From the IMG/VR virus record IMGVR_UViG_3300047496_000236: DNA of 20,000 nucleotides; one strand, given 5' to 3'. Shown here piece after piece: positions 1 through 20,000 of this stretch. The notes below the pieces were generated by a model. The model was not told where the DNA came from. It searched no databases and worked only from the letters and a program-made list of their open reading frames with translations. The DNA comes from an uncultured virus (IMG/VR IMGVR_UViG_3300047496_000236). Lineage: Duplodnaviria; Heunggongvirae; Uroviricota; Caudoviricetes. How positions within the stretch are numbered: position 1 is the first letter of the stretch; every line of letters starts with the position of its first letter. The position numbers and the translations under genes are program-made.

Positions 1-1080
1 GGCGAGGCAGGTGAACTGGTAACCCCTGGATCTGAAGTTCGCGAGATAGCTAGGCCAGTCATTAGCCCACGGCAGGGTGGAGGCCTCCTCGAGGTTCTTC
101 TCGGAGACCAGGCGGGTCCCGATGTCGTAGGACTCCGCGCAGCACTCCATCATCCACTTCGCGAATTCGGTATCCCTCTTCTTGAGGAACTCGAACCACT
201 TCACCTTGTTGCGGCAGTGCATCGGGAAGATGCACTGGGGGGCATGGTGCCCCTCGAAGTAGTTCCGGCGTTCGGGGTGCCCGTGGAGCCAGTAGCCGTG
301 CTCCGTATCGATGCCCTTGTCGCACTTAGGACAGACGAGCCCGTGGAGGCCAATAGCGCTCTCGAGGTCGGCGCCTCGCTTCATCACGGAGGTGTAGCCG
401 CACCCCTTGCACTTGATGGCCCACTCCGCCATCGAGGAGTCCTTCCAGAGGTACTCCACGGTGTTCGAAAGCGACAAGGGGGTCCCCGCGTACTGCTCGA
501 GACCCCAGTCCGAGGCCGACATGGATTCCCGCATGACCCCCAGGAATTCCTTGTTGATGCCCTGGACTTCGTCGACCACGAAGCGGTCCGCGTTGATACC
601 ACGGGTGCGATCCGCATCGGAGAACGCGTATGAGAAGAACATGGTGGAGTTGTTGTGAGGCATCGTCTTCTGGAGAACGGAGTCCCGGCCTCGGAAGGTG
701 CGCTCTGCCACCATTTCTCTCAGGATGCAGTTGTTGATCGCGGGCTTCACATACAGGCTCGAGAAGCGCTGGATCTGCTCCTTCAGGGGCGTCACGAAGA
801 GGGTGTTGAAGTCAGAGATCGCAATGGACAACGCGACGCCCTGGTGGGCCTGGCTCAAGCTCTTACCGGTTTGGCGGGCACACTTCCAGAGGGACCGCTT
901 CGGGGGATCCAGTCGGAACATGGGCCGCATGGGCTCGTGCCCCGGGCTCAGGCTGTAGGGCTCCCGCTTGAACTTGAACAGGACAGGCAGCAAAGGCACC
1001 AGTGTCTTTGCGCCGCTTCGCTGGAAGGCGTCCAAGTAACGGTCGACCTCGGCAAGCTGGGCCGCATAGGAACCCGACAT
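1..1080 (-). CDS. terL: Terminase large subunit, gpA-like (N-terminal ATPase part; 3' end beyond window edge)
   Basis: Manual translation from ATG 1080 (in-frame ATG also at 1089) is open to base 1: MSGSYAAQLAEVDRY... Walker A KCARQTGKS, Walker B RGINADRFVVDEVQ, coupling motif YAGTP, then CKGC...CPKC zinc-type pair typical of lambda gpA-like terminases. Not in ORF track because no stop lies in the window. Confidence 0.9.
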   Translation of the reverse strand, partial: MSGSYAAQLAEVDRYLDAFQRSGAKTLVPLLPVLFKFKREPYSLSPGHEPMRPMFRLDPPKRSLWKCARQTGKSLSQAHQGVALSIAISDFNTLFVTPLKEQIQRFSSLYVKPAINNCILREMVAERTFRGRDSVLQKTMPHNNSTMFFSYAFSDADRTRGINADRFVVDEVQGINKEFLGVMRESMSASDWGLEQYAGTPLSLSNTVEYLWKDSSMAEWAIKCKGCGYTSVMKRGADLESAIGLHGLVCPKCDKGIDTEHGYWLHGHPERRNYFEGHHAPQCIFPMHCRNKVKWFEFLKKRDTEFAKWMMECCAESYDIGTRLVSEKNLEEASTLPWANDWPSYLANFRSRGYQFTCLA

Positions 1081-1130
1081 AGCAACCATGAGGACCACTA
1101 TGAAGGCCTCTGGGAACCCCGCAACATTCC

Positions 1131-2645: not shown

Positions 2646-3080
2646 TCAGGCCGCGAGCTTCGCGAAACTGTCGATGCGCGAGAGGTCCAGGCGGACCCCA
2701 TAGGCCGCCTGGATCGCATCGATCACGGACCCCCGCGTGTCGGCAGCCCGACGCGCGTAGGTGTTGCGGGCCTCCAAGGAGCACCCGCCGTCCTTCCAGG
2801 CGTTATTGGCCGCCGCGGCGAGGTATTCCGCCGAGGTGGCTTTCGCCGCCAAGGTGGGCCGTTCGGAGAACCAGCCCCGGAGCAACCCGGAGACGAGTTC
2901 GTCGTACTGGGCCTCCAGCTTCTGGATCTCGATGCACTCCGCGGCCGAGACGCGACCCGCGGTGGTGGACTGGATGACGCGGCCGAGGGCCCGCGCGATG
3001 CCCTTGATATCGGAGGCCAACCCGAGCAGCGCGGCGTCGGGGGCAGAGGAGACGGGAGCGAGTTCGAGGGTAGCGTTCAT
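2646..3080 (-). CDS. Hypothetical alanine-rich helical protein (144 aa)
   Basis: ATG with AAGAAAGG upstream, GC3-biased codons, same strand as neighbours, ends ...FAKLAA. Confidence 0.75.
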   Translation of the reverse strand: MNATLELAPVSSAPDAALLGLASDIKGIARALGRVIQSTTAGRVSAAECIEIQKLEAQYDELVSGLLRGWFSERPTLAAKATSAEYLAAAANNAWKDGGCSLEARNTYARRAADTRGSVIDAIQAAYGVRLDLSRIDSFAKLAA

Positions 3081-3186
3081 AGGGTGCCTTTCTTAGGGGC
3101 AGGGGGTAGGGAAGACGGGATCACTTAGCCCTCGCCGCAGCGGGGGCTAAAAGATCCCCCGTGGATGCCATCCACGGAGGTCGGTA

Positions 3187-3519
3187 TTACGCACTCACTG
3201 TGTCTTCGATATCAGGACGGCGGTGGTACTGCCACCACTCGGAGCCGTCGTATTCCCCGCGGGTGGCCCAGGTGCCATCCTGGAACCAGATCACCCCGAA
3301 GAGGTGCTGGGTACCGTAGCCGCTGTCGTACTTGACGTTGAGGCTCTTGTAGGCCGCGTCGACCTCGGCCTCAGTGAAGCCCGGCTTGAGCTTCACCTTG
3401 ATCTGGCCTCCCTCGAAACCGGGCTCCCAGCTGTCGACGGTGTGCAGATCGATCACGAGGGCCTCGATCGGGCCCTTGTCCTTGATGAAATCCATGAGTT
3501 CAATCAACGCGTTGGCCAC
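3187..3519 (-). CDS. Conserved phage hypothetical protein (YDSGYG...GTW..RGEYDGSEWW type)
   Basis: GTG start with AAGGAGG SD. The aromatic motif YDSGYGTQHLFGVIWFQDGTWATRGEYDGSEWW resembles a widespread small phage protein of unknown function (recognised from memory). Confidence 0.85.
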   Translation of the reverse strand: MANALIELMDFIKDKGPIEALVIDLHTVDSWEPGFEGGQIKVKLKPGFTEAEVDAAYKSLNVKYDSGYGTQHLFGVIWFQDGTWATRGEYDGSEWWQYHRRPDIEDTVSA

Positions 3520-3706
3520 AGGGGCCTCCTTCTTTGTTGGGGGTTCGTAGGCCTCTGCCGCAGCAGAAGCCTATGAACCCCCCGTGCTTCCACGGGGGTT
3601 CGCGCCCTACTTCGGTCCCGCCTTTCGGTTAGGGACCCGTTCGGGAGCCGACATGAAGAACGACATCATAATCGCATCAGGAAGGCCCTCCTGTTGGTGG
3701 AGGCGT

Positions 3707-3895
3707 TCAGGCCGCAGCGAGGACGGCCTTGGTCCGACGCTGCTTGTTCTTGCGGCGGCTCCGGGCGGGAACCGGGAGCTCCGCGGGGGCCCGCCAGGCC
3801 TCGTATTTCTCGAGGCCGTACTTGCCACCGTAGTAGCCCCCGGCAGCGATGGCACAGATGCCGACGGCGAAGACGAAGGCGGATGGGCTGAGCAA
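3707..3895 (-). CDS. Small membrane protein (62 aa), N-terminal hydrophobic helix ending YYGG, basic tail
   Basis: TTG start with TAAGGAG SD; hydrophobic AFVFAVGICAIAAGG; RSRRKNKQRR tail; ends AVLAAA. Confidence 0.7.
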   Translation of the reverse strand: MLSPSAFVFAVGICAIAAGGYYGGKYGLEKYEAWRAPAELPVPARSRRKNKQRRTKAVLAAA

Positions 3896-4064
3896 GGTGT
3901 TCTCCTTACCGTGCTAGGAAAGACCCCCGGGGAGCGCACGGCCTCCCCGGGGCAGATCAGCGCACTATTCAACAGTCCAAGACCCGGTGTAGTACATAGC
4001 TCGCGCTACATAAGTCCTCCTTAGTGGAAGTGGTAGAGGCCCTGCTTAGGGGCCCCAAAAGCCT

Positions 4065-4130
4065 GATAGCAAAAGAAAATGAGATGCCCCGAGATCCCTG
4101 CGCAACTCGCACAGAGATCTCGGGGCATCT
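4065..4130 (-). terminator. 22-bp hairpin + U-tract + GCTATC module
   Basis: Minus strand AGATGCCCCGAGATCTCTGTGC-GAGTT-GCGCAGGGATCTCGGGGCATCT then CATTTTCTTTTGCTATC. Confidence 0.75.
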
Positions 4131-4234
4131 AAATGAGTAATTGAAATAACTGCCCCGTCGGGCGTGTTATTTAGCCCCCACCAAAGTGGGAGCCGACCTG
4201 CCCGGAGCCTTGCGGCATGGGGTCAGATCTGTCC

Positions 4235-4303
4235 GATAGCAAAAGAAAAGGCAGCACCCATCCGCGCTCCCGGGGGTTCTCCCCGAGAGTCGCAGATGGG
4301 TAC
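4235..4303 (-). terminator. ~21-bp hairpin + U-tract + GCTATC module
   Basis: Minus strand GTACCCATCTGCGACTCTCGGGG-AGAAC-CCCCGGGAGCGCGGATGGGTGC then CTTTTCTTTTGCTATC; same apical loop as the 1131-1200 module. Confidence 0.75.
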
Positions 4304-4925
4304 GGTCTTACTTCATTCAGAGGCCTGGTTAGGGCGGTCTGAATCCTGCGCAGCTTTCGCTACACAGGCGGTGCCCCGGAACCCCGGACCTCCTTACGGA
4401 GGCCCTGGGTGTGGGAGCGACCAGTTGTTGGTACGGAGCCCCCTCGGATGGAAGGGCCCCGATGGAGAATCGCAAATCTACCCTGGTGTGAATCGCCTTC
4501 ACTAAACCCGTACTAGCCGATGCGGAGCCACATCCATTTGTGGCAATCCTTCTCTTCGGGGTTCAAGTGTCGCCAGCGCCCCTTCGGGCAGCGGCGACCG
4601 GTGAATGTGGATCCGATACGATAGCTAGCCATGATGATCCCTCGCTACAGTTGTCGACTGCGCGTTAATGGGTGCTACAGGATGTCTGGGAATGACGCCG
4701 CTGCTTGATGGTGCAGTCCGTGCTAGAGCCCGGGGAAACCATGCCCTGGCCCTGTGAGGAGCGACCTCTGCCAGAGACCGGAATGACTCCTGTGAAACTG
4801 ACCAGTCCATCCTCGGGGATTCCGGCATCTCTACTGCGCCGGAAACCCAAGTGCCAGGAGAACCCCATAGGGGAGCCCTGGCGGTCCTGGTGACCAACCT
4901 GATCTTGGCTAGGCGGGGGGTCGGC
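4235..4925 (-). ncRNA. Candidate structured non-coding RNA (class unknown)
   Basis: No convincing ORF. Minus-strand GNRA-capped stems at 4345-4368 (GAAA) and 4381-4410 (GTAA), long-range helix 4523-4615 enclosing hairpin 4569-4598, G-U pairs that work on the minus strand, ends in a terminator. Confidence 0.45.
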
Positions 4926-4928
4926 CCG

Positions 4929-5366
4929 CTAGCCCAAGTAGAACATTCCAATCGCACGGGCCACAGGCGCCCGCCGCCGCTCCTTTCGGATAACGGCGAT
5001 ATATTCCATGATGACGAACCCCAGCTTCTCGTGGACGAGAAGGGTGGTGCCGGCCCCTTCGGGATCATGGAGCGCGCGAACCTCAGGGGAACCCCCGGCG
5101 AGGAGCTGGAGCTCCTCGTCAGCGATGGCCCTGAATCCACTCCTGGTCTGCGCGTATGCGTCGATAGCCACCCAGGACTCGTACAGCTCCTTCCTGACGA
5201 AGTTGCAGGCGAGCCTGAAAGTTCCGATCGCACGCACCCGTCTGAGCTCCGCAGCCGCCGCAGCGCTAGCGGGACCCCACTCGTCACCTTCGGCGCCCAG
5301 GGCTGCGAGGTAGGCCTGGTTAGCCTTGTACTCCAGACGCCGTCGAGCTGCTTCGGCGTCGTTCAT
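4929..5366 (-). CDS. Hypothetical protein (145 aa)
   Basis: ATG 5366 (MNDAEAARRRLEYK...) overlaps the upstream TGA (ATGA), purine-rich upstream sequence, protein-like composition. Confidence 0.65.
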   Translation of the reverse strand: MNDAEAARRRLEYKANQAYLAALGAEGDEWGPASAAAAAELRRVRAIGTFRLACNFVRKELYESWVAIDAYAQTRSGFRAIADEELQLLAGGSPEVRALHDPEGAGTTLLVHEKLGFVIMEYIAVIRKERRRAPVARAIGMFYLG

Positions 5367-5629
5367 GGGGCCCTCGCCTTCTTGGGCTTCGGGATCCCCT
5401 TGGCCCTCACGAGCCTGACGCCTCCGGGGCAGTCCCAGGCCTTTGCCAATTTCTTGGCTCCGGCCCGGGGCAGCCCCGGCACATAGCACCACCCGATGCG
5501 GTGCCTCGTCAGCAGTTCCCGCTCGTGCGGGCCCGCTGCTCTTGCTGGGATCACGGCCCAGCGCCGACGCCTGCTGCGGCGCCCTCTGTGCCCCCACTTA
5601 CGAGGGAATGTGGAGCGAGGCGTCTCCAT
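5363..5629 (-). CDS. Small basic hypothetical protein (up to 88 aa)
   Basis: Fills the gap between two genes; starts 4 nt after the upstream stop; its stop overlaps the next ATG. Start uncertain. Confidence 0.4.
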   Translation of the reverse strand: METPRSTFPRKWGHRGRRSRRRRWAVIPARAAGPHERELLTRHRIGWCYVPGLPRAGAKKLAKAWDCPGGVRLVRAKGIPKPKKARAP

Positions 5630-5633
5630 GGAC

Positions 5634-5879
5634 CTAGACCGTCGCCAGCTTGCGCTTCGACTTCACCTTGGCCCTGGCCCTGGCCTTGCCCACGGCCTTG
5701 CCGAGAGACTTCTCGACCTTGGCCGTCTTGCCGTAGGCCGCCTCCCTGATGCGATCCACCGCCATGCTGACGGCGTCGGGGTACCGCCGGGCCACCCACT
5801 GACCGCCATAGATGACGGCAGCGGTGGCGCCTGCGGCGCAGAGACCCAACGCAACGTTGGGCGAAATGACGATAGCCAT
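5634..5879 (-). CDS. Small membrane protein (81 aa), hydrophobic helix ending IYGG, Lys/Arg-rich tail
   Basis: ATG 5879 with GGGGAGG SD; MAIVISPNVALGLCAAGATAAVIYGG...KARARAKVKSKRKLATV. Confidence 0.75.
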   Translation of the reverse strand: MAIVISPNVALGLCAAGATAAVIYGGQWVARRYPDAVSMAVDRIREAAYGKTAKVEKSLGKAVGKARARAKVKSKRKLATV

Positions 5880-5961
5880 GTGAAACCTCCCCTTCGGGGT
5901 TCTGCCGCCGGAAGTGGCGGACATCCAGAGGCCAAGCTGGGGCCTTGGCCACTGGTGTCTG

Positions 5962-6402
5962 TCATTTCTTCAGAGATGCCCTCCTGGTGGGCACCTTCGT
6001 CACGACGTACTCGGAGCAGAACCTCCGATACTCGCAGGGCTCCCTTGCGGGATCCGCAATCCGGAGGGTGTCCCCCCGGACACCGTGAACCACGACGACA
6101 TGAGGGATGCCGAAGTAGTTCACAGAGGCCACCAGGATGAAACCGGCCCTCAGGAGGCGCCTGGCCTCCGGGAACAGGAGGCGCTGACCTGAGTACGTCG
6201 ACCGGAGCCCGTAGGTCCTCAGGGCCTTGGCGACCCTTTGCACCGAGGTGCCGTCCTTGGTGGCCCCAAGAAGCGGAATGAGATCCCGCGTCGGGACCCC
6301 CCATCCGAGGCAGGCATCGATGACCATCCCCGTGCACTCACATGCACAGGTCCAGTCCCGATACTGGAGACGCCTCCGGAGCGGATAGAGCACGGTGCTC
6401 AT
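5962..6402 (-). CDS. Stand-alone C39-like cysteine peptidase
   Basis: Q-x5-C motif (LQYRDWTC), GTS..L...LRTYGL segment, catalytic His in PHVVVVHG and IADP motif: the C39/papain-like pattern. No ABC-transporter domains. Confidence 0.8.
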   Translation of the reverse strand: MSTVLYPLRRRLQYRDWTCACECTGMVIDACLGWGVPTRDLIPLLGATKDGTSVQRVAKALRTYGLRSTYSGQRLLFPEARRLLRAGFILVASVNYFGIPHVVVVHGVRGDTLRIADPAREPCEYRRFCSEYVVTKVPTRRASLKK

Positions 6403-6461
6403 TTCAGCTCCGGCGGGATCTCTGGATGGAGCTCCTGCCTGGCGTTCGTCAGCTTCTGCAT
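6399..6461 (-). CDS. 20-aa peptide MQKLTNARQELHPEIPPELK coupled to the peptidase
   Basis: AAGGAGG SD 5 nt before ATG 6461; TGA overlaps the peptidase ATG (ATGA). Confidence 0.5.
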   Translation of the reverse strand: MQKLTNARQELHPEIPPELK

Positions 6462-6576
6462 TGAAGCCTCCTTCCGCCCCTCAGGGGCTTGGGGTGAAGC
6501 CGAACCCCGGGCTGCAGCCCCGGGGTTGGCGTAGATACGGGCCTTGGAGGCCTGCCGTCTCCGGCAGGCCTCCGAG

Positions 6577-7185
6577 TTATCCATGGGTCACCATGGACAA
6601 AAACGCCGACAGGGCCCACAGGGCCGTGACGGCCCCGGCGCCGCCGAAGAGCTTGGGCCCCAGGCCCTCACTCTTGCCGATGACAACGCGCTCCTGCGCC
6701 ATATCCAGGGGAAGCTCGAGCGCATGCCCGTGCTTCCCGCTGAGCGCCGTAAGCGCGGCGCTAGAGACCTCCTCGAAGCCCGTCCAGTCCGCTCCATGAA
6801 CGGACCCGATCCATTCCTCACCCCTGGAGACCCCGGCATAGGTCCCCCCGGAGAGCTCGTGGATCCGACGCGCCAAGAGCTCGACTCGTTCCTGCCGGAC
6901 GACCGCGCCGAAGAAGCGGTCGATCGCCTCCAGAGCAAAGAGCTTGCTATCGCCCCTGCTCCGCCCCGGGATAACGACGATCTCCCAGGGCCGCTTGCCC
7001 AGGAGGAGGGCGCTGAGGACCTCCACGGGGTCCTTGTGGGCATCGTGGTGAACCACGTTTCCCCATTTGCGCGTATCCAAGGTCGCCACCCTTCCCTTCC
7101 TCTCGTGCAAAAGGTTCCATTCGAAACCGCCTTCTTTCCAGGGCTTGATCCTGGTGAGGGTCCAAGGCCCATTGTTGGTCTGCAT
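6577..7185 (-). CDS. Hypothetical protein (202 aa) with C-terminal hydrophobic segment
   Basis: ATG 7185 (MQTNNGPW...) with GGGAGG SD; C-terminal LFGGAGAVTALWALSAFLSMV. Confidence 0.7.
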   Translation of the reverse strand: MQTNNGPWTLTRIKPWKEGGFEWNLLHERKGRVATLDTRKWGNVVHHDAHKDPVEVLSALLLGKRPWEIVVIPGRSRGDSKLFALEAIDRFFGAVVRQERVELLARRIHELSGGTYAGVSRGEEWIGSVHGADWTGFEEVSSAALTALSGKHGHALELPLDMAQERVVIGKSEGLGPKLFGGAGAVTALWALSAFLSMVTHG

Positions 7186-7509
7186 GTGTCCTCCCTGCCT
7201 TGTAGGCATATGGGGTAAACCCGCCTGAGACGCAGACCTCAAGCGAGCGGGGAATTCCGGATACCATGCCTCCGGTGGGGCATTGCGGCGATCTCGTTCC
7301 GCATCGCTCAGCTGTACTGCGCTAAGCCAGGGAACGAGTCCTCGTTTCCAGGGCGCCTTGATTGAGGTTGAGCGCGCTCCTTTCGGAGCCCTAGCCCTCC
7401 TCGCATTGCGCAGCGAATCGCGACCTGTTATTTACCCGGACAGGTTCCGGGAAGCCTAGTAGGCACACGAATCCTCCCTGCCCCTGTGGGGCATCCTGGG
7501 GTGAAGAAG

Positions 7510-7695
7510 CTAGACAGCCCTCTCAACCTGGCCCCACTTCACTCGCCACTCCAGAACGGTCCAGACCCCGTTCTGATGAAGGAGGCGACTGGGCAGCCAC
7601 TTGCCGTTCTCCAGGATTCCCTGGATCTCACGGCTGCGGCCGAGGGTGCGTTCGCACCGTGAAATGAGCTCCTCCATCTGACGCACTGAGCGCAT
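7510..7695 (-). CDS. Small hypothetical protein (61 aa)
   Basis: GGGAGG SD plus CTTCA-ATG leader identical to that at 6461. Confidence 0.6.
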   Translation of the reverse strand: MRSVRQMEELISRCERTLGRSREIQGILENGKWLPSRLLHQNGVWTVLEWRVKWGQVERAV

Positions 7696-7809
7696 TGAAG
7701 CCTCCCTGCCCCGTGGGGCACCTGGGGAAAAGGAAGCGGGGACTCGATGACCTCCCGCGGTAGCCCCCCTTTCTTCGGTTCAGGGGCCGGCAGCTCTGGG
7801 TACTGCATC

Positions 7810-8340
7810 CCTAAATCAGACCTCCCTAGGAGGCGTACGAACCCATAGGCTCGCCGGGCTCAGGTCAGCCGGAACCCTCTTTATGCCCACAGCCAGGTGT
7901 GGGCCCCGCACCTCATCTGGGCGGGCGGCAGAGTACTGGCAGGCTTTCCCGCTGTGGCGGTGGCCTCAAATGGATCCCGAAAGATCCCATGTCCGCATTC
8001 CAAGGATTACGGTAAACCAAACCCCACAGGGCTCGCCTTTGCTAGCCCCAGGAACCCCATAGGCTTTGGGTTCCGTACGCGGTCACAGTCCGGCCGCGAG
8101 CGCTGAACACCCTGCAGGGGTTCAGACACCTGGGGTATACCCAGGGACCGGGGGATGGCCCCCCGTTGTATTCAGGATCCTGCAGGACCCCTACTGACTG
8201 CGGCGGCGTCAGCCCTCCCCCTGCCCTGGGGTCGTATAGCCAGACACAACAGCGCTACAGCGCGGTTCGTCCTTCCAGGGGCGTACCGGTTTCCCGGTAC
8301 CTAAGAGATCCTTCGCGCTAGTTATAGTACGAAGGTCCTC
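7810..8340 (-). ncRNA. Candidate ~530-nt structured RNA / long leader (class unknown)
   Basis: No credible ORF. Begins directly after an AT-rich promoter-like element; chain of at least 8 hairpins, including GTACCGG-GAAA-CCGGTAC (8283-8300). Confidence 0.45.
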
Positions 8341-8373
8341 AAGTAGTAATACGCGAAACCGGGTCTTTATTTA
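8341..8373 (-). promoter_or_regulatory. Putative promoter TAAATAA-N15-TATTACT
   Basis: AT-rich island in GC-rich DNA right after the GNAT stop; TAAATAA recurs at 4167-4173, 7428-7434 and 12520-12526. Confidence 0.5.
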
Positions 8374-8397
8374 CCCCCCGGGGACCCCCGGGGTCCC

Positions 8398-8886
8398 TCA
8401 ATCACGCCACATCAGGACCCCATCTTCGGCAGGGCATCCTAGGGGGTGAAAGAAGCCCTGGACGACCCCCCGGGGGACGAATCCCAGCTTCTGCCAGATC
8501 CGCATGGCGCGGCTCCACTTCGGGTTCACGAGGCCTATAGCCGGGGGGGCCCCGGGCCCCCCTAGGAGGGCTCCTACGAGGCCCCGGCCAACCCCTGGAT
8601 ACCCCGGCATAGCCGCCACTGATGTGACATACAGGAGACCCCCGCGGGGCGCCCTCATGAGGTCGATCTCGGGCTTCCCGATGTCGTATATCCGCCAGAT
8701 CTCCAGGGCCGTTGCGTAGCCCTGAACAACCCCATCGATCTCCCCCACGACGAAGGTCTCCGGGGCATACCAGAGCTGGCGCCAGAACGGGAGCGCGTTG
8801 GGAGCCGCGATGCCAAGGGCAAAGGACGCCGTCTCGATCTCGAGGACGCGCTCGATGTCAGCGGAGACCGCCTGCCGGATGATCAC
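8398..8886 (-). CDS. GNAT (RimI-like) acetyltransferase
   Basis: N-terminal IRQAVSADIERVLEIETASF, motif A YVTSVAAMPGYPGVGRGLV, N...AMRIWQKLGF, C-terminal EDGVLM; GTG start overlaps the upstream TGA. Confidence 0.85.
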   Translation of the reverse strand: MIIRQAVSADIERVLEIETASFALGIAAPNALPFWRQLWYAPETFVVGEIDGVVQGYATALEIWRIYDIGKPEIDLMRAPRGGLLYVTSVAAMPGYPGVGRGLVGALLGGPGAPPAIGLVNPKWSRAMRIWQKLGFVPRGVVQGFFHPLGCPAEDGVLMWRD

Positions 8887-11423
8887 TGCTGCTGATCGCC
8901 AGCGAGGCCCCTGGCGGCTCCATAGCCGCCGAGGCCGACCCCGCCGGCTCCGAGGGCCTTGATGCTGGCGAGGAGGTGGGTATCGCGGCCCTGCATCTCG
9001 GACTGCAGGTTGTGATTCGTGAGCGTGCTATTGGCAAAGAAATCGGGGACCCACTTCGGGGTCGGATACAGAAGCCCGGAATGGCTGTTCGGATTCGCCT
9101 CGAAGATGATGGGTTTGCCACCCTTCCGGAAGCCGACATCGAAGGCGCCGCTGAGCTGCGAGTTCCGCTTGGCGAGCTGGGGTTCAAGGTGATCCCGGAG
9201 GGCCTGCTCAGCCCTGCGGGCCCCGGGATCCAGTCCGAGTTGGCCCAGGTAGCCCTGAATGGTCTTGTGCCGGGCCTCGGCCCCGGGGATCACGCGGCCA
9301 TTGACCATGTGGACCCTGTACTCGCTGGCGAGACCCCAAGGCGGCCTCTCGAGATCCACGCGGGGCTGGACGAAGCCCAGGGTAGGGTTCCTGAGGTAGC
9401 TCTGGAGCCTCCAGGCCTGCGCGTAGTCCGGGTTCTCTTTAAGGGCTGAGATCCATTCCTCGGGGTCATCCTTGAGGGCATGGACATCCCGGGGAGTCAT
9501 AGAGGTCCCCGGGATCTTCTCGCCCTTGGCGTAGCTGAAGTGGGGCAGGATGTCGTCCAGGTTGCTCTGGTCGTTGAAGAGGGTCCCGGCGCTCTGGAAG
9601 TCCCGGCGCCCCTTCATGATCCATTGGGGTGGCAGCTTGTTCAGGCGCTCCTCGAGCCAGGGGCGCAGGGCGTCCCCCTTGGGCACGGGACCCCCGAGGA
9701 CCTTGCTGAGAGGTGTTACCTCAGGAACCAGGCCAGGGACCAGCTTGCGGAGGCTCTGGAGTTCCTTGAGTTTGTCGTCGACGCCGAAGAACTTGAGATC
9801 CCCGGCGGTAGGCCCGATCCCGAGACGACCCCCTGGGTTCCTGTCCGCCCTGAAGTTGACCATGCCTCGGGGAGCCTTCTCTCCGTTGGGGCCGACGTGC
9901 TTGGTGCCGTAGGTCAGGTACGCCAAGAGATCCCGCATGACGCCCGGCTTCTGCTTCGCAAGCTCATCGAAGTCCTCCTGGGGCACATGCCGGAAGAGGC
10001 CCTTCTGACGCACGAGCTCAGTCATCTCGGGGCTCAGGATGCCTCCACGACCCCGGCGCGCGATGGCGTACGCGAGGGCCGCCGGAATCCCGGCTGCCGC
10101 GGCGTAGCCAGAGGCCGGCAGGGCCTTCTTCTTGTGCGGGGGTCCCGTGGGTATCAGGGACGCCGTCTTGTCGCCCTGGAGCTCCCTGGCGGCCCCGTAG
10201 GCCCCGGCCCCTGCAGCGGCAGCCCCGGTGCCCTTGAGGCCCGCCATGAGCCAGGTATCACGCCCCTGGATGGCGCCCTGAAGGCTGTGGTTGCTGAAGG
10301 CGGCCCTGCCAATGTCCATGGGGTTCCAGCTCGGGTTGGGGTAGAGGTGACCCGAATAACTATTCGGGTTCGCCTCAAAAGCGGTGGCCTTCCCTGAGGG
10401 ATCCAGCCCGACATCAAAGCCGCCGCTGAGGCTCGAACCCCTGGCAGCCAATGCGGGTTCCAGGTGCTCCCGGAGGGCCTGCTCTGCTTTGTGGGCCCCC
10501 GGATCCAGACCGAGCATGCCGAGGAGATGCCGCACCTTGTTGTAGCGTGACGTGGTTCCGGGAACCACTTTGCCATTGAGGACGTGGACGCGGTACTCCT
10601 GCTTCCCCAGGAAAGGGTTCGTGGCGATTTGGGTCCTGGTCTGAGCGAAACCGGAACCCGGGTTCTTGAGGTAGCCCTTGAGACGCCAGGCCATGGCGTA
10701 CTCCGGGTTCTGCTTCAGCGCCGCGGACCACTCATTGGCTCTGCTGGGGGACCTCCGGATCTCCTCGAGCTGATTCGGGGTCATGTCGATCCCGGGGATC
10801 ATGGCATCCGAGGGATGGTTCATGTACGGCAGGACCTTCTTGAGGTCGGCCTGATCCGTGAGGAGACCCCCGGCGGAATCGAAGTCCTTCTTGCCCTTCA
10901 GGATCCACTTCGGCCCCAGCACCTTGAGATTCTTCCGCAACCAGGGCTCCAGTGCGGGCCCCGTGGGCGGGGTCCCCTTGAGGACGCCGGAGAGTCTGGT
11001 GAACTTGGGGGTGATACCGGGGGCCAGCTTGTGGAGGAGGGCGGTCTCCTTGAGCTTGTTGCCCTCGCGGAAATCCCGGATGTCGGCCTCATTGGGTCCG
11101 ACCCCGAGGGGGCCCCCAGGCTTCTTCAGCGGATTGATGTCCACCATACCGGCGCCCCTGGGGGCTTCCGTTCCGACGTGCTTGGTGCCATAGGTCAGAT
11201 ACGCCAGGAGGGAGCGCAGCGGCGACTTGTCCAGGGCGGCGGCGTCGGTCTCGTCGACGTGACGGAAGACCCCTTTGGCCCTGGCGGCCTCCATGAGCTC
11301 GGGGCCCAGGAGACCCCCGCGGCCCCTGCGGGCGATCAGCATGGCAATGGCAGCGGGGATGCCAGCGGCTGCGGCGTAACCTGAGGCCGGCAGCCTCTTC
11401 TTGGGCTTGTGCTCTTGGACCAT
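8883..11423 (-). CDS. Tandem double ATP-grasp (RimK-like) protein, 846 aa
   Basis: Two ~420-aa homologous units, each with WI(L/M)KG..DF.SAG, F(A/V)Q.R, EYRVH..NG.V and FDVG....G....FEANPNS.SG (metal-binding E-x-N), each flanked by Gly/Ala-rich hydrophobic segments. Confidence 0.8.
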   Translation of the reverse strand: MVQEHKPKKRLPASGYAAAAGIPAAIAMLIARRGRGGLLGPELMEAARAKGVFRHVDETDAAALDKSPLRSLLAYLTYGTKHVGTEAPRGAGMVDINPLKKPGGPLGVGPNEADIRDFREGNKLKETALLHKLAPGITPKFTRLSGVLKGTPPTGPALEPWLRKNLKVLGPKWILKGKKDFDSAGGLLTDQADLKKVLPYMNHPSDAMIPGIDMTPNQLEEIRRSPSRANEWSAALKQNPEYAMAWRLKGYLKNPGSGFAQTRTQIATNPFLGKQEYRVHVLNGKVVPGTTSRYNKVRHLLGMLGLDPGAHKAEQALREHLEPALAARGSSLSGGFDVGLDPSGKATAFEANPNSYSGHLYPNPSWNPMDIGRAAFSNHSLQGAIQGRDTWLMAGLKGTGAAAAGAGAYGAARELQGDKTASLIPTGPPHKKKALPASGYAAAAGIPAALAYAIARRGRGGILSPEMTELVRQKGLFRHVPQEDFDELAKQKPGVMRDLLAYLTYGTKHVGPNGEKAPRGMVNFRADRNPGGRLGIGPTAGDLKFFGVDDKLKELQSLRKLVPGLVPEVTPLSKVLGGPVPKGDALRPWLEERLNKLPPQWIMKGRRDFQSAGTLFNDQSNLDDILPHFSYAKGEKIPGTSMTPRDVHALKDDPEEWISALKENPDYAQAWRLQSYLRNPTLGFVQPRVDLERPPWGLASEYRVHMVNGRVIPGAEARHKTIQGYLGQLGLDPGARRAEQALRDHLEPQLAKRNSQLSGAFDVGFRKGGKPIIFEANPNSHSGLLYPTPKWVPDFFANSTLTNHNLQSEMQGRDTHLLASIKALGAGGVGLGGYGAARGLAGDQQQ

Positions 11424-11438
11424 GAGCAGAGCTTAGCT

Positions 11439-11458
11439 CTTTCTCCGCGCGGAGAAAG
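11439..11458. promoter_or_regulatory. 20-bp perfect palindrome CTTTCTCCGCGCGGAGAAAG
   Basis: Fills most of the 36-bp gap between the 340-aa gene and the ATP-grasp gene; core repeated at 2478-2493. Confidence 0.55.
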
Positions 11459-11459
11459 G

Positions 11460-12482
11460 TTAGGCGGTCTGCAGGCTCAGCATCTCGATGAGGACATCCG
11501 CATCGGGGCGAGGCCACGTCTCGAGGATCTCGGAGGCCCGCTCGAAGCCGACACCCTTGACCTCGTTGTAGAGCGCGGGATCCACAGCGGCGACCTTGGC
11601 CCAATCCAAGTCGGAGAGCCGGATCGTCTTGCCGTTCATGAGGTGGACGAGGCCGTCTTCTGAGGCCGTCTTCACGTTGAGCACGGTGTCGTGGTACAGG
11701 GCCTCCTCGGGGAGCTCCAGGGAGACCCCGTAGGCCAGCTTGAGGCCCTGTTCGTCATCCAGAGCATCGAACGCCTTCATGGCGTACTCATCCCAGTCCG
11801 GGAAGTCGGAGGTGCTCCTGAGGATCGCGGCGACCTTGATGCAGCTCGGAGCCAGCGCGACATCGCGGCGGCGGCGCTCCATGAGCATGACATCGGCGGC
11901 CTCGTAGGACGGCAGCCCGAAGCCGGCGGCCTTCGTGATGTAGTCGAAGGCGACCGGGGTGACCCCGACTTCAGCGTTGCCACCGGAGCCCATGATCTCT
12001 TCGAAGAGGGTCCCTGCCGCCTTCTGGCGGGCTGCCCAGGGCAGCTTGTGACGCGACTTCCAGAAGGTCTCCGAAGCCTCCTTGAGGGACGTCGTTGATG
12101 CAAAGGGGAACAGGCGGTACTGGCGTCCACCGAGAGCGATGTCCAAGGCGTACTTCACACCCCGGGGTTCCGTGGCGTCCATGATCTCGGCGGCCATCTT
12201 GTTCACGGTATCGATGACACCGAAGATCTTGGCGGCCCCGAAGATCCGGGAGGTCACGGCGGCAGCGATCTTGGGGGTTCCAAAGGCTTCCGCGGCGCTC
12301 AGGATGCAGTCCTCCGGCGAGCAGATCGGGAACCTGCGGGCGGCCTGATCAGCGAAGGAGGAGGAAGGAAGACCGTCGTGGTTTTGAGACGTTTCCGCCG
12401 CGATCTTCTCAAGATCCACGGCTTTCACGGCTCTCTTGACGAGGTCGAATGCCCTGATGTCTTGGGTAGCGGTGGTGTTCAC
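11460..12482 (-). CDS. Hypothetical, probable virion/head-associated protein with multiple K-x-A-[A/S] motifs (340 aa)
   Basis: GTG start with AGGA upstream; KIAA (twice), KMAA, KEAS, KVAA (twice), KTAS. The virion role is inference. Confidence 0.7.
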   Translation of the reverse strand: MNTTATQDIRAFDLVKRAVKAVDLEKIAAETSQNHDGLPSSSFADQAARRFPICSPEDCILSAAEAFGTPKIAAAVTSRIFGAAKIFGVIDTVNKMAAEIMDATEPRGVKYALDIALGGRQYRLFPFASTTSLKEASETFWKSRHKLPWAARQKAAGTLFEEIMGSGGNAEVGVTPVAFDYITKAAGFGLPSYEAADVMLMERRRRDVALAPSCIKVAAILRSTSDFPDWDEYAMKAFDALDDEQGLKLAYGVSLELPEEALYHDTVLNVKTASEDGLVHLMNGKTIRLSDLDWAKVAAVDPALYNEVKGVGFERASEILETWPRPDADVLIEMLSLQTA

Positions 12483-12567
12483 TTGGTTTCCTATATCACG
12501 AACTGTAAGGGCGTCCAGTTTATTTACTAGCCCTGAGTCCTAAGATACGTTAAGAAGCCTACACCCT

Positions 12568-15147
12568 ATGTTGACGTCCCCTTTGAACAAAATGACACCC
12601 CAGGACCTCCTGGGAGCCCTGAACATCGGCGCCGGCAAGACCTACCCCAGCGTGGCGAAGTGTCCCCTTTGCCTGGTCCCGGGGGCCCTCGAGATCACCC
12701 TCGCCGTTGGGGGCTCCGCCGTATACGCCTGCAGAACCCAGACCTGCGGCTTCGCCGGGGATGGTCTGGAGCTCTTCGCCAGGGCTAAGAACTGCGGGCT
12801 TCAGGAAGCCGCCCACATCCTCCTCGCTGGAGGCATCCTTCCCGGGGACCCCGATTTCCATGTCCACCTCCAGGACTACCTCGGGGCCTACAAGGCGCAC
12901 CAGGTCATCGATGACTGGTGGGCCGAGCGCAACCAGCGTCTCCAGACCTCGAGCCATGCCGCGGGGATCCTGCAGGCCCTGGGGTGCTGGATAAGCCCGG
13001 CCCTTACGCTGGACCCCCAGGGCCTCGGGAAGCATCTCGGGATCTGCACCGGGCGTGAGCTCCAGACCCTCATGTCGGGCCATGAGCACCTCATGTACAC
13101 CCAGGGGTACCGCCAGTACCTCATCACCCCGCTTTACGCGGATCCCCGGACCATCACGGGCTTCGCGTACTTCACGGAGACCGACTTCGGCTGCGCCCAC
13201 CTGGACAGCCACAGCAAGGTCTTCGGCTTCGGGTTCCTCTCGACCACCGGCTTCAGGTCCGATGTCGTAGTCCTGGTGAATACCCCAGCTGCGGCCCTGG
13301 AGTACCTCGCGAACTCCTGGGGTGTTCCGGGAGCCCCTGGGATCCTCTATGTGCACCCCAGGGCCTCCGCCTGGGAAAGCGTGCTGGCCCGTAGGCGCCT
13401 CTTCCTGAACTTCAATGACTCCATCGAGACCTACAAGCAGACCCTCAGGGACTCCTCGGCGGTGGTCGTCTCCAAGAAAGCGATCCAGACCAGACACTAC
13501 GGACCCCTGAGCAGTCCCAAGGCTCGCCTGGAATACTTCCTCGAGATCGGGACTACGGCTCACGCCGCTGCAGGGGCCTACCTCCTCGGGATCTCCTTTG
13601 CGGAGGCCAGGGTGGCTGCCCAGAGCATGGATCTCCGCGGGGCCGATATGGCCCGTATCAGCTCAGCGGTTCCAGAAGCCTCGAGACCCCAAATGGAGGA
13701 GATCTTCGCTGACCTCCAAGAGAAGCTCTCGGTGAGCTACCGTGGGGATACCATCTCGATCTACAATGGCTCCTGGAGGTCCGAGAAGCATGGCGAGATC
13801 TCGAATGCGGTCTTCCTCGTCGATGAGGTCATCTGCGATACCCACAACAATCGGACCGTCGCCAAGGGTGTAGTGCTCCAAGGCAAGCAGACGTACCCCT
13901 TCCAAGACGACCTCGTGCGGCTCCAGACCAAGGTGGTCGACTTCTTGCAGGAGGTCCTCCGGAAGAACCATGGTGACATCCTGAATGTGGCCCCGGGCTG
14001 GACCAAGGGGAACAAGATGTACCACCTCAGCACCCAGTTCAGGGCGCCCCAGACGACCTACAGCGCCGTTGGAACCGGCTGGGCCAACGACAACAAGCGT
14101 TTGGTGCTGCCCCGGATCACCCTGGAAAACGGGGTCGTCGTGACCTCCACGAAGCTCCTGGATGGCTCCGGCCAGGGCCTAGGGATACCGCCTGATCTCC
14201 ACACCCTCGATCTGGATCCCATCCTGGTACCCTCGGATGCCTCGGCCTCGTTTTGGGCCCTATGGGCTGCCCTGACGGCCAACGCGTGGGGTCCCCTGCA
14301 GCCCCATGGGCCCCAGGGCTACGGGATCGTTGAGGCCACGGGGACCGCCTTCGACGAGGTCTACCAAGGCATGATCGAATCCATTGGGCTCCAGCGGGTC
14401 ACCCTGAGCACTACCGACGCCGTCAGGACCACCAAGGCTACGGAGCAGAAGTCGATCCTGCCCCTCGTCATCGATGAGATGTGGTCGCATTCCAAGTTCT
14501 TCGCGGCGTACCAGCAAGACGGCCTCCGCAACGCCTTCGTGGGGATGTCGCCCACGACGTACCTCGCCACAAGCCTCTCCGGGGGATGGACTTATCTCAC
14601 CCCCAAGGGGGTCCCCGGGACCGGTGTAGACCTCAGACCGTACTGGGCCCTCCTACCCATGTTCTGGGCCTGGCTGCAGGTCAACCAGGTCCAGTGGGAG
14701 CGTACGAGGTCATCTCTGCTGCCTGGGATCCTCAGGAACGCCGTGGAGCCCTGGTTGAGATCCCTGGGATACGAGAAGCCCGTCTTCGCAGACAAAGCTG
14801 TGGGACTCATCTCTGTGGACACCACGGCGGCCCAGGTCGCCTGGGGCTACCGCTTCATGGGGTTCCTCATTGAGGCCACCAAGAAGGGTATCCTCCGCAT
14901 CGGGAAGCCAGATGATCCCAAGTTCGCTGAGAACCTCACGGTCGACGAGGCCGGCAAGGTCGCCTTTGTCTCGAAGCAGCGTCTCGGGGCCCTGTTCCAG
15001 GAACTCGGCATTGAGCCCATCAGGCAGGAAGACATCGCGACCAACATGGACGCCGTGGGTTGCCTTGTGGGGCAGCGGTATCGTAATACCGTTGGAATCG
15101 TCATGGATCTCGAACGCTACAACCTCTGCTGGGCCATGAGGGCATAA
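12568..15147 (+). CDS. Primase/helicase-like protein with N-terminal zinc-binding domain (859 aa), probably degenerate
   Basis: CPLC...YAC...CGFAGDGLELFARAKNCGLQEAAHIL matches the DnaG/CHC2-type zinc finger pattern; LPLVIDE Walker-B-like motif in the C-terminal half; no clear GKT/S Walker A or TOPRIM EG/DxD. Confidence 0.65.
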   Translation: MLTSPLNKMTPQDLLGALNIGAGKTYPSVAKCPLCLVPGALEITLAVGGSAVYACRTQTCGFAGDGLELFARAKNCGLQEAAHILLAGGILPGDPDFHVHLQDYLGAYKAHQVIDDWWAERNQRLQTSSHAAGILQALGCWISPALTLDPQGLGKHLGICTGRELQTLMSGHEHLMYTQGYRQYLITPLYADPRTITGFAYFTETDFGCAHLDSHSKVFGFGFLSTTGFRSDVVVLVNTPAAALEYLANSWGVPGAPGILYVHPRASAWESVLARRRLFLNFNDSIETYKQTLRDSSAVVVSKKAIQTRHYGPLSSPKARLEYFLEIGTTAHAAAGAYLLGISFAEARVAAQSMDLRGADMARISSAVPEASRPQMEEIFADLQEKLSVSYRGDTISIYNGSWRSEKHGEISNAVFLVDEVICDTHNNRTVAKGVVLQGKQTYPFQDDLVRLQTKVVDFLQEVLRKNHGDILNVAPGWTKGNKMYHLSTQFRAPQTTYSAVGTGWANDNKRLVLPRITLENGVVVTSTKLLDGSGQGLGIPPDLHTLDLDPILVPSDASASFWALWAALTANAWGPLQPHGPQGYGIVEATGTAFDEVYQGMIESIGLQRVTLSTTDAVRTTKATEQKSILPLVIDEMWSHSKFFAAYQQDGLRNAFVGMSPTTYLATSLSGGWTYLTPKGVPGTGVDLRPYWALLPMFWAWLQVNQVQWERTRSSLLPGILRNAVEPWLRSLGYEKPVFADKAVGLISVDTTAAQVAWGYRFMGFLIEATKKGILRIGKPDDPKFAENLTVDEAGKVAFVSKQRLGALFQELGIEPIRQEDIATNMDAVGCLVGQRYRNTVGIVMDLERYNLCWAMRA

Positions 15148-17187: not shown

Positions 17188-20000
17188 TTAGCTAGGGATC
17201 GTGACCTGAAAGGGGCACCTGGCGATCTCGTTGCCCCCATCCATGACGAGGTCGATGTAGATCCAGATCGGGATCCCCTTGGGGAGCTCAGCGTTGTCGA
17301 CGAAGCGAAGTGTGAGCCCCGACGACGTATGAGAGGACAGCACGAGCTCCTTGATCTCGATGACATCCGAAGGGCTCGAGGGGACCTCAGAGGCTCCGGT
17401 GTTGTAGTAGGCCCTGACTTGGAAGGCTGTACGCCCCGCCACGGATACGGGGGTATCCAGGGTCACGAAGAGCGCGGAAGTGGTCTGAGTCAGGTGGATC
17501 TTGGAGACCACGAAGGTGTCCGTGATGTCGGCGTGGCTAGGGCCCCCGGGATACGGATAGGTTGGGTATGGCACGAAGATATCACCATTCAGGGAGTGCA
17601 GTTCCAGAGTTCCAGGGGCTGTGGTATCCCCTGGGATCCCTTCGAACCCCAGAACCCTAGTCGAAGCTGGGCTCCTGACCCAGGTCGCAGGTCCAGTGAA
17701 TATCTCCATGATGCCACGGAACTGGATAGCCGGGGACCCGCCGGTGGCGGAACCCCAGAGGAACCCCGGATGCACGTAGATGATCTCGGTGGCGACGAGC
17801 TTGTTGTAGTCATCGATGGCGACCAGGAGACAGAAGCCTGGCTTCACCGCCGTGAACACCAAGGTCCCGTGGGGGCCTGCGGCAATGGTGCCGGCGGAAC
17901 CAAAGAGCTTGTGGCTCGTGATGTTCCCACCGGCATGCACTATCGGCAACGTGGGGTTCGCCAGAGTGCAGAAGGAATACCGGCCGACGCGGCGCACGGG
18001 GGAGTAGTGGCCCAGAGCGAACCCGGTATCGGGGTTGGAGCCAGCGGGGATCACATTGGGACCTGAGATCGGATTATCGCTCTTCGTCAACCAGGTCGCC
18101 GGATCCCAGTCGTAGGGGGTGCTCGGACTCCAGCTATCAGTCGGGGACTGCGCATTGGGGTTCCCATGCAAGGAGAGCCCCATGTAGGCCCCGTCGAGGC
18201 GGAAACCGCCGAGGATCTGCTGGAGATGTTGGCTCTGGTGGCGTGGGAAGTCTCCAATGGGCTCGATGCTGGATCCGATCAGATTGGCGACCTTCTTCTG
18301 GGCGCTGAATTGGGTCTGATAGCTGAAGACGACTCCCAGGCTTCCCTCGTCGGTGCTGTAGGAATCCACGGTGCTGTCCTGCAGGGAGAGCAGCGTGATG
18401 AAGGCGGTCAGCACAGGGGTCTGGCGGTCCGTGCCAACGATTGGCGGTCCACTGGGTTCGTCTTGGGTGTCCGTGCTTGAAGATGTATACGAGACATTGA
18501 TTGAGGTCCCCGTGAAGACACCGCCCTGGGAGTTCGTGCTGGTGGGGCCTGATCCCGCATTGACCGACGTCATCGCGATCGAGCCGACAGTGATCTGGCC
18601 GGCAGAGACTACGTGGTACTCATTGGGCGATGATCCCGAGGTGTAGTTCAGGGCGGTCCCGCACGACACATAGACGTAGTACGCATCGAAGTCGAGGTTG
18701 CCATCGGGGTACGCCGCACCGCAATAGCTGTCGATGGTGTAGTAGCCCTGACCCCTAGCCCTAGAGATCGTAGCGGTGCTGTCGTTGAAGGAACCAACCC
18801 CGACGCCGCTGCCGTAGTTGTCGAAGGAATACGTGTAGGTCTGAATGAAGGAGTGCAGGGAGCCCGTGCCGGCGTCGGGATCCGTCCCGTCGTAGGTCGA
18901 ATCTCGGGTCGTGCTGTTCATGACGATGTCGACCATGAACCCGGGGGCCATGCGGGCTTCGAGGTGCAGGAAGAGCTCCGGGAGAGCCTTCACGGAGCCA
19001 TCGGGGTAGATCACCGTAGGGCCAGCCAGGTAGCCCCCATCGAGCTTGGCGCCGCCGCTCATGCCGGCGATAGCGGGCTGCTGGTCACGGTCATAGGTCA
19101 CGTAGAACGGGGCCACTGGCGACCACACCACAGTGTTTTGGCCCCCGGAGGGCCCAATGGCAAACGTGTTGCCGGTGGAGCTACCGTCGAAGCCGAAGAT
19201 CACATTGGACTGCGGGGTGTACGAGCCGGGGTCGTAGTAGGTGTCGTAGACGGTGTAACAGCTCAGGGGTTGGCCAGTCTTCTGAAGGCTGATGAGCCCT
19301 TCTACCAGCGGAGGCTGGAAGGTCGTCGTGGCCACCAGAGGCGCCGCGGCCTTCCAGACAACCCCGACCCCGAGGTGGACCCAGGCGCTATACCAGGTGC
19401 CCCCAGAGGCGACGAAATGGACCCCGAGGTCATCAGTGATGGCAGTGTTGACGACGAACTCGCCAACGACGCCTGAAGGAGGACTGCATCCATTGGAACT
19501 GATGGCCCAGGCGCCCCCGTTGCCCATACGGTAGATCCCGCCCAGAAACGGTCCAGCGGAGACCCCCCACCGCGGGACCACCGACGCCAACGTGGAGTAG
19601 TCCCGTATCAAGAAGGAATACACCAGGTTGCCGGGGGTCATCTCGCCTTCGGTGAGGACCCTGAGCCGGTCGTGCACATAGACGCGCCCGCTGACCCCAA
19701 CGGCCATGATAGGCAATGCCGGATCGGATCCGAGGTAACGGGACGGGGGCTCCGTGAGTCCCGCCGGCATCACGAAGCCGCCCACGGAGCCATACCCCAT
19801 ATAGAGATCCATGGGGCTCATGCCGGAGAGCCAGGACGACTTCTCCTCAGAGAGGCCCGGCGGGAGACCTGTAGGGGGTGCGCAGAATCCCTCGTCAACG
19901 AGGGTCTTGAAGATGCTGCTGACCTCCAACGGCTCAATGATGACGGCATCCTTAGCCGGGAACGTCTTGTCGAATCCGAGGGGGCGCCTGGTCCAGTACT
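17188..20000 (-). CDS. Large Gly/Ser/Thr/Tyr-rich probable tail/baseplate structural protein (5' end beyond window)
   Basis: Frame stays open from 17188 past the listed TTG at 19929 to the window edge (YWTRRPLGFDKTFPAK...); beta-rich composition typical of phage tail or fibre proteins. Function is inference. Confidence 0.65.
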   Translation of the reverse strand, partial: YWTRRPLGFDKTFPAKDAVIIEPLEVSSIFKTLVDEGFCAPPTGLPPGLSEEKSSWLSGMSPMDLYMGYGSVGGFVMPAGLTEPPSRYLGSDPALPIMAVGVSGRVYVHDRLRVLTEGEMTPGNLVYSFLIRDYSTLASVVPRWGVSAGPFLGGIYRMGNGGAWAISSNGCSPPSGVVGEFVVNTAITDDLGVHFVASGGTWYSAWVHLGVGVVWKAAAPLVATTTFQPPLVEGLISLQKTGQPLSCYTVYDTYYDPGSYTPQSNVIFGFDGSSTGNTFAIGPSGGQNTVVWSPVAPFYVTYDRDQQPAIAGMSGGAKLDGGYLAGPTVIYPDGSVKALPELFLHLEARMAPGFMVDIVMNSTTRDSTYDGTDPDAGTGSLHSFIQTYTYSFDNYGSGVGVGSFNDSTATISRARGQGYYTIDSYCGAAYPDGNLDFDAYYVYVSCGTALNYTSGSSPNEYHVVSAGQITVGSIAMTSVNAGSGPTSTNSQGGVFTGTSINVSYTSSSTDTQDEPSGPPIVGTDRQTPVLTAFITLLSLQDSTVDSYSTDEGSLGVVFSYQTQFSAQKKVANLIGSSIEPIGDFPRHQSQHLQQILGGFRLDGAYMGLSLHGNPNAQSPTDSWSPSTPYDWDPATWLTKSDNPISGPNVIPAGSNPDTGFALGHYSPVRRVGRYSFCTLANPTLPIVHAGGNITSHKLFGSAGTIAAGPHGTLVFTAVKPGFCLLVAIDDYNKLVATEIIYVHPGFLWGSATGGSPAIQFRGIMEIFTGPATWVRSPASTRVLGFEGIPGDTTAPGTLELHSLNGDIFVPYPTYPYPGGPSHADITDTFVVSKIHLTQTTSALFVTLDTPVSVAGRTAFQVRAYYNTGASEVPSSPSDVIEIKELVLSSHTSSGLTLRFVDNAELPKGIPIWIYIDLVMDGGNEIARCPFQVTIPS

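Follow-up and report, generated by a model that had tools for sequence, protein, structure and literature searches.

A non-coding, hairpin-rich stretch behind a promoter-like signal in an uncultured tailed phage, possibly a long transcript leader

Introduction

In the lambdoid late leader, the promoter pR′ gives a short terminated 6S RNA that is read through under Q antitermination. In phage HK022, the put RNAs form two stem-loops just past the promoter and act in cis on RNA polymerase. Much larger are GOLLD and ROOL, described as large ornate RNAs that are often present in phages and prophages (bioRxiv 10.1101/2024.12.08.627333; PMC5737381). Long structured 5′ UTRs can contain cis-regulatory elements such as riboswitches, attenuators, and RNA thermometers, and like them the stretch analyzed here has a promoter-like signal on one side and an ORF on the other. 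It occupies positions 7810 to 8340 of a 20,000-nucleotide piece of DNA from an uncultured virus, and we refer to that whole piece as the window. A preliminary description had proposed a hairpin-chain RNA of ~530 nt on the minus strand, either an undescribed large noncoding RNA or a very long regulatory leader. We conclude that the stretch is real, non-coding, and rich in hairpins, that its start signal is plausible and phage-specific, and that a long structured leader is its likeliest identity.

Results

The window comes from a tailed phage, since its ORF at 1–1098 (minus strand) has a Pfam match (E 1.7e-8) to the ATPase domain found in large terminases of the gpA type. When 25 ORFs were compared with Pfam, two passed the curated cut-off, namely this terminase and, at 5962–6402, a C39-like peptidase; two others, one GNAT-like and one ATP-grasp-like, gave sub-threshold matches. 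None of 18 ORFs matched PHROGs, a PDB sequence search with four large ORFs returned no match, and single-protein queries of IMG/VR with a TerL fragment, the 460-aa protein, the GNAT protein, and the 202-aa protein returned no relatives. The 846-aa ORF adjoining the structured gap sits on a 72,134-bp contig; its single match in a set of 5.8 billion proteins was itself, and no relative was found among the genome contigs searched. The nearest TerL relatives are 52% and 49% identical to the window terminase, and the nearest named phage by large terminase, Salmonella phage Arash, is 34% identical. Judged by these sequence comparisons, the lineage is highly isolated, that of an orphan tailed phage. 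A 22-bp hairpin with a U-rich tail (4129–4064) and strong GGGAGG ribosome-binding sites would point to a bacterial host. Sequencing reads contained the stretch in two of four moss-metagenome runs, identical in both and without variants; both of these runs may be its source, and none of the runs listed for the stretch is an RNA run.

All genes around the structured gap read from the minus strand. From 11423 to 5962 (minus strand), an 846-aa two-halved protein is followed by the GNAT-like ORF, the structured gap, small ORFs, and a C39-family peptidase domain (E 2.3e-6), a gene set that may resemble ATP-grasp-type peptide-modification clusters such as microviridins. The two halves of the 846-aa protein are similar (DNA repeats ~1,275 nt apart, 76–92% identity), and the protein gives sub-threshold ATP-grasp R2K matches. 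A perfect 18-nt palindrome, CTTTCTCCGCGCGGAGAA (plus its complement), occurs at 2476–2493 and 11441–11458, ~9 kb apart, the second copy falling in the short gap that separates the 340-aa and 846-aa genes. Among the TerL relatives (P0002–P0024), 12 of the 23 longer ones have intein or LAGLIDADG domains (PF14890, PF14528), and several are on contigs of 90–233 kb.

The gene-free gap extends over 7696–8397 (minus strand), from the stop of the upstream GNAT-like ORF (TGA, 8400–8398) to the ATG at 7695. That ORF encodes 162 aa, has its own stop codon, and scores 18 bits in Pfam against a cut-off of 20.7 (residues 27–107). The gap is wider than the ~530 nt (7810–8340) assigned to the RNA in the preliminary description. 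Across 7701–8450, each of the six frames holds 5–9 stops of at least two kinds, and therefore no frame would be opened by reassigning a single stop. GC3 periodicity disappears over roughly 7650–8370 (spread 0.03–0.18 versus 0.3–0.6 in the flanking genes), and no pair of Shine-Dalgarno sequence and start codon was found between 8340 and 7707. Nothing here has the open frame, codon periodicity, and start signal of a protein-coding gene, standard or recoded. We also rejected a pseudogene: 19 stop-free pieces of at least 25 aa were compared by tblastn with 80 related loci and the rest of the window, and none matched at E ≤0.01. The stretch is non-coding, in line with the earlier judgment that it holds no credible ORF. 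Its GC content stays between 0.615 and 0.635 (62% overall), with no AT-rich dip.

The stems that had been picked out by eye, from 8340–8305 to 7833–7821, all exist on the minus strand where they had been placed, and folding recovers them, 7833–7821 weakly. Hairpin 1 (8305–8340, −14.6 kcal/mol, two G-U pairs) would form the presumed 5′ end of the transcript. Hairpin 2 (8283–8300, −11.6 kcal/mol) is GTACCGG-GAAA-CCGGTAC, a fully paired 7-bp stem capped by a GAAA tetraloop, the one GNRA loop among the hairpins, and beyond it folding predicts a branched domain closed by CCCUGG/CCAGGG (8223–8282). The 121-nt 5′ block, 8222–8342, folds to −51.9 against −38.0 ± 3.5 for shuffles (z −3.97), and none of 200 shuffles was as good. 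Six hairpins are predicted within 8028–8165 (8165–8149, 8144–8130, 8129–8100, ~8098–8078, 8074–8051, and 8049–8028); the block 8025–8170 has a z of −2.29, and four of 200 shuffles fold equally well. Five more occupy 7856–7988 (7988–7972, 7966–7941, 7925–7905, 7904–7885, and 7877–7856; −10.4 to −11.3 kcal/mol each). At the proposed 3′ end, a weak hairpin, CCUCC-UAG-GGAGG (7821–7833, about −8.4 kcal/mol), is followed by UCUGAUUU; this hairpin is not terminator-like, being missing from the terminator scan and at chance level in stability (z 0.02). The motif CCUAUGGGGUUC lies at 8052–8063, with a second copy at 7838–7849 (one mismatch) and another at 4860–4871. Written as CCUAUGGG(G/U)U(U/C)C, it has five copies at ≤1 mismatch where 0.48 are expected, a number reached by none of 200 shuffles; all five are on the minus strand (the remaining two at 2693–2704 and 17750–17761), and three of the five are in non-coding gaps.

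Upstream of 8340, a GC-rich hairpin (8374–8397; 7-bp stem, −16.4 kcal/mol, no U-tract) comes immediately behind the GNAT stop, and 2 nt further on lies TAAATAA (P1, 8367–8373), a recurring promoter-like or regulatory motif. TAAATAA has four copies in the 20 kb (8367, 7428, 4167, and 12520) where 0.12 are expected, and none of 200 shuffles reaches four; every copy is on the minus strand and in non-coding DNA. When the four sites are aligned, those seven bases alone are invariant, and at three of them (8367–8373, 7428–7434, and 4167–4173) a GC-rich hairpin ends 0–2 nt before the motif. Behind the copy at 7434–7428, too, ~240 nt that lack coding signal separate the motif from the next gene. As a clade-wide signal we rejected TAAATAA, which is not enriched in 20 related loci (GC ≥0.56; 0–2 copies each, near expectation). 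The second element, TATTACTA at 8344–8351, contains the promoter-like TATTACT noted before (8351–8345), which does stand just ahead of the first stem, 4 nt away. In the form WATTACTM, that is (A/T)ATTACT(A/C), it has two copies, at 8344–8351 and 4135–4142 (expected 0.18; one of 200 shuffles reaches two), both on the minus strand, downstream of TAAATAA, and 4–5 nt before a strong hairpin; ATTACT is missing at the other two TAAATAA sites. From these motifs we infer a candidate minus-strand transcript start near 8340, for which the best support is the recurrence of the motifs, a pattern that suggests such a start.

The second site with both elements is the unit 4173–4064, in which TAAATAA and WATTACTM are followed 5 nt on by a 22-bp hairpin (z −8.79) with a U-rich tail; in sequence, this arrangement resembles a promoter followed by its short, terminated RNA. 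The unit is part of a second, larger gene-free stretch of ~1 kb (3896–4940, minus strand), which shows no GC3 periodicity and immediately precedes the operon whose last gene is the large terminase. In local folding, no tiles of the window score more strongly than those of 3896–4940 (z −7.67 and −6.21), and two hairpin terminators in it (~4268–4233 and 4129–4064) have an identical 15-nt tail, TTTTCTTTTGCTATC. A unit of TAAATAA and AATTACTC between those terminators would make an RNA of ~70 nt that is the 22-bp hairpin.

At the downstream end, a scan of 3000–13000 gave 17 terminator-like sites, none of them on the minus strand between 8397 and 7696; a terminated RNA gene was rejected for this interval, as no GC-rich hairpin with a U-tract marks a 3′ end there. 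The first gene past the structured stretch is a 61-aa ORF (7510–7695, minus strand) whose frame fits the GC3 phase, unlike that of an overlapping 89-aa ORF. It is preceded by GGCAGGGAGG at 7701–7710, with the Shine-Dalgarno sequence GGGAGG and a spacer of 5–6 nt to the ATG; it matched no Pfam family and gave no informative Atlas match (best score 0.85). The segment 7700–7737 (minus strand) is a conserved translation-initiation element, and its predicted fold (−19.4 kcal/mol) pairs the GGGAGG with an upstream CUUCC, although this stability is not above chance. Related elements stand before the ORFs starting at 7695, 7468, 6461, and 7185. On the minus strand, this ~45-nt element occupies 7693–7737, 7465–7510, 6459–6503, and 7183–7232, before ORFs of 61 aa, 25 or 12 aa, 20 aa, and 202 aa, respectively, and reads in the order CUUCACCCCAGG, a small GCCCC-loop-GGGGC hairpin, GGCAGGGAGG, and the start codon. 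The 20-aa ORF (6399–6461) and the start of the C39-like peptidase gene share an ATGA overlap. We rejected paralogy of the non-coding gaps, whose common part is the 38-nt translation-initiation element alone.

With somewhat less than even confidence, we read the stretch as an untranslated part of a phage transcript from the minus strand, either its long leader or a spacer between cistrons. Transcription would start near 8340, downstream of a phage-specific bipartite signal made up of TAAATAA (8373–8367) and TATTACTA (8351–8344). The RNA would open with a stable 5′ hairpin, continue through ~645 nt of GC-rich hairpins, and, with no terminator on the way, enter the 61-aa ORF (7695) and then the cluster of small genes that follows. 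The hairpins may act in cis, for example as a 5′ stabilizer, as processing or pause sites, or by controlling access to the Shine-Dalgarno sequence of the first ORF; both the production of the RNA and a regulatory role for its hairpins are proposed from sequence features. The geometry is that of a leader, in that the stretch lies between a motif-inferred start and the first same-strand ORF with no terminator between them. Since no terminator-like site occurs in 8397–7696 and the stretch runs into the 61-aa ORF, a leader or intercistronic RNA is favored over a free-standing one; of the two possibilities raised in the preliminary description, the leader is thus the one that gained, while a discrete, conserved large noncoding RNA was not demonstrated. 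Against the leader stand the absence of any sigma-70-type promoter in 3000–13000, the unequal spacing between TAAATAA and ATTACT in the two units (16 versus 25 nt), and the missing U-tract of the hairpin after the GNAT stop, which makes read-through from upstream possible instead of a start at 8340.

The stretch folds better than shuffled sequence, so the refuting outcome named in the preliminary description, folding at the level of shuffles, did not occur. The global MFE of the 531 nt was −251.1 kcal/mol versus −227.5 ± 6.8 kcal/mol (z −3.46; none of 100 shuffles as good), and local folding (span ≤45) gave a z of −5.02. This excess is not specific to the stretch, which counts against the leader. 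The plus strand also beats its own shuffles (z −4.44), and when 37 tiles of 531 nt were scored (30 shuffles per tile), four outscored the finding, with minus-strand z of −6.2 to −7.7, while the two tiles overlapping it gave −3.71 and −3.07. Minus-strand z was −3 or lower in 11 of the 14 tiles between 1063 and 8496, and the 21 tiles from 8497 onward ranged from −2.1 to +1.0. Of the 150-nt segments within the finding, 8251–8400 alone stands out (z −4.39; scan to 10575), and segments elsewhere, such as 4051–4200 and 6451–6675, reach −7.3 to −7.8. The strongest 150-nt folds on both strands (z −5.4 to −7.8) are those of 6451–6750, which takes in the 202-aa gene at its 3′ end as well as the intergenic hairpins that precede the 20-aa ORF. 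The local fold of the minus strand uses 19 G-U pairs and that of the plus strand eight, and scoring the minus-strand helices in plus-strand sequence costs them 21.6 kcal/mol; the same asymmetry is seen in tiles from 3718 to 8496. On this folding model, the asymmetry fits an RNA read from the minus strand. We conclude that the folding is in part beyond chance and that the stretch is no more structured than its surroundings.

Another reading is that the stretch is non-functional spacer DNA, such as a decayed gene or insertion, whose hairpins stem from 62% GC and a regional habit of local structure, which we consider unlikely, although it is the best of the alternatives to a leader. It gains from the count of strong hairpins (−9 kcal/mol or better), of which the stretch has 11 but shuffles already yield 8.8 ± 1.4, with 20 of 200 shuffles reaching 11; from the excess on both strands and the neighboring coding tiles, which score equally well or better; and from the finding, in all searches described below, that the region is kept in no relative. 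It is opposed by a total local stability 5 sd beyond shuffles and by the enriched strand-specific motifs at the start of the stretch and inside it. The stop-free pieces match nothing and there is no residual codon periodicity, which speaks against decay from a gene, and phage genomes are normally densely coding, whereas here 700 nt without a gene have been kept.

Searches for known RNA families agreed with the earlier impression that the stretch matches no tmRNA, RNase P, SRP, or intron. None of the 4227 models of Rfam 15, among which are those for tmRNA, RNase P, SRP, group I and II introns, ribozymes, riboswitches, phage pRNA, and large ornate RNAs, matched at gathering score anywhere in the 20-kb window. 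A relaxed scan of 7400–8800 gave five chance-level matches at E ≤10, the best of which was snaR-A (21.8 bits versus a threshold of 98, E 0.084) at 8362–8479, largely outside the finding. ARAGORN found no tRNA or tmRNA genes in the window. A self-splicing intron was rejected, as the GNAT ORF has its own stop, the 61-aa ORF has its own Shine-Dalgarno sequence and ATG, and no intron model matched.

Homologue searches were likewise negative. Distant-mode blastn of 7780–8400 found no match in 50,697 phage records and 72,556 plasmids, and an exact 42-mer of the region occurred in no IMG/VR stretch. An exact 19-mer covering hairpin 2 was found at 15 loci in JGI metagenome contigs, all chance occurrences (such as terminators, or tRNA arms on the other strand), and none of the 15 shares anything else with the window (blastn, E ≤1e-3). 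Against 80 TerL-related IMG/VR loci (1.21 Mb), nhmmer of 7696–8397 gave nothing at E ≤10, blastn of the same interval gave seven matches (best E 0.25), and a single-sequence covariance model of 8222–8342 gave nothing at E ≤10; against five whole related records, the covariance model reached a best E of 0.89. No homologue of the region turned up in any collection searched.

We regard as distinctly unlikely a free-standing, trans-acting structured RNA of ~530 nt (8340 to ~7812), encoded by the phage under its own promoter and of an undescribed class. Such an RNA would account for the promoter-like motifs, the well-defined 5′ block (8222–8342, z −3.97), and the hairpin 7833–7821 followed by UCUGAUUU, and a stretch with no coding potential and no known family leaves room for a new one. 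However, the proposed 3′ end lacks a terminator-like site and its hairpin is at chance, the centroid structure does not retain the long-range helices that close the MFE fold, no homologue and hence no covariation supports it, and both the lone GNRA loop and a structure score unexceptional for this part of the genome tell against it. More doubtful still is the wider proposal of a new class of large (at least 530 nt), trans-acting structured RNA made from a phage-specific TAAATAA ... ATTACT type of promoter, whose support is the recurrence of the motifs and a moderate excess of folding, with nothing beyond. Its setting could possibly link it with the duplicated ATP-grasp-like protein, the GNAT protein, the small ORFs, and the C39-like peptidase.

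That the stretch works at the level of DNA and not of RNA, for instance as an origin of replication or as a cos/pac packaging region, is highly improbable: it is non-coding, 6.6–7.3 kb upstream of the large-terminase gene, rich in inverted repeats, and by z-score folds equally well on the plus strand, but there are no iterons (four two-copy direct-repeat families of 9–17 nt in 7650–8420), no tandem repeat inside 7696–8340, and no AT-rich dip, the 19 G-U pairs in its stems would become A-C mismatches in the other strand, and the gap 3896–4940, directly before the terminase operon, is the better packaging-site candidate. An iteron-type replication origin was rejected specifically, as neither clustered direct repeats nor an AT-rich unwinding region was found.

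Discussion

If real, the stretch would be a long structured leader or RNA in an almost uncharacterized phage lineage, and together with the unit 4173–4064 it would define a new promoter-like signal for that lineage.

Among the described systems, GOLLD and ROOL share with the stretch a length of several hundred nucleotides, a phage origin, and the lack of an ORF. The stretch differs from them in that no tRNA genes are nearby and its centroid structure supports no multi-way ornate architecture. Both families presumably have Rfam models, and neither is among the five Rfam matches at E ≤10.

The likeness to structured 5′ UTRs extends to the predicted hairpin at 7737–7700, which pairs the Shine-Dalgarno site. 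The stretch differs from such UTRs in that it matches no known aptamer, has no terminator/antiterminator pair, and has a Shine-Dalgarno hairpin (7737–7700) that is no stabler than shuffles (z 0.02).

The put RNAs of HK022 resemble the stretch in having two stable stem-loops at the transcript start, here presumed to be 8340–8305 and 8300–8283. The stretch matched no Rfam family and, unlike the put system, has within it no terminators that would need antitermination.

Finally, the lambdoid late region differs from this locus in several respects. In the stretch there is no terminator, and the length is about three times that of lambda 6S RNA; around it, no Q-like protein was recognized (no Pfam family for the neighboring ORFs) and no sigma-70 promoter was found. 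As at pR′, however, a promoter-like signal would be followed at once by structured untranslated RNA, with small genes, a lysis-like cassette, and the terminase genes downstream, and the sister unit at 4173–4064 combines a putative promoter with an immediate terminator.
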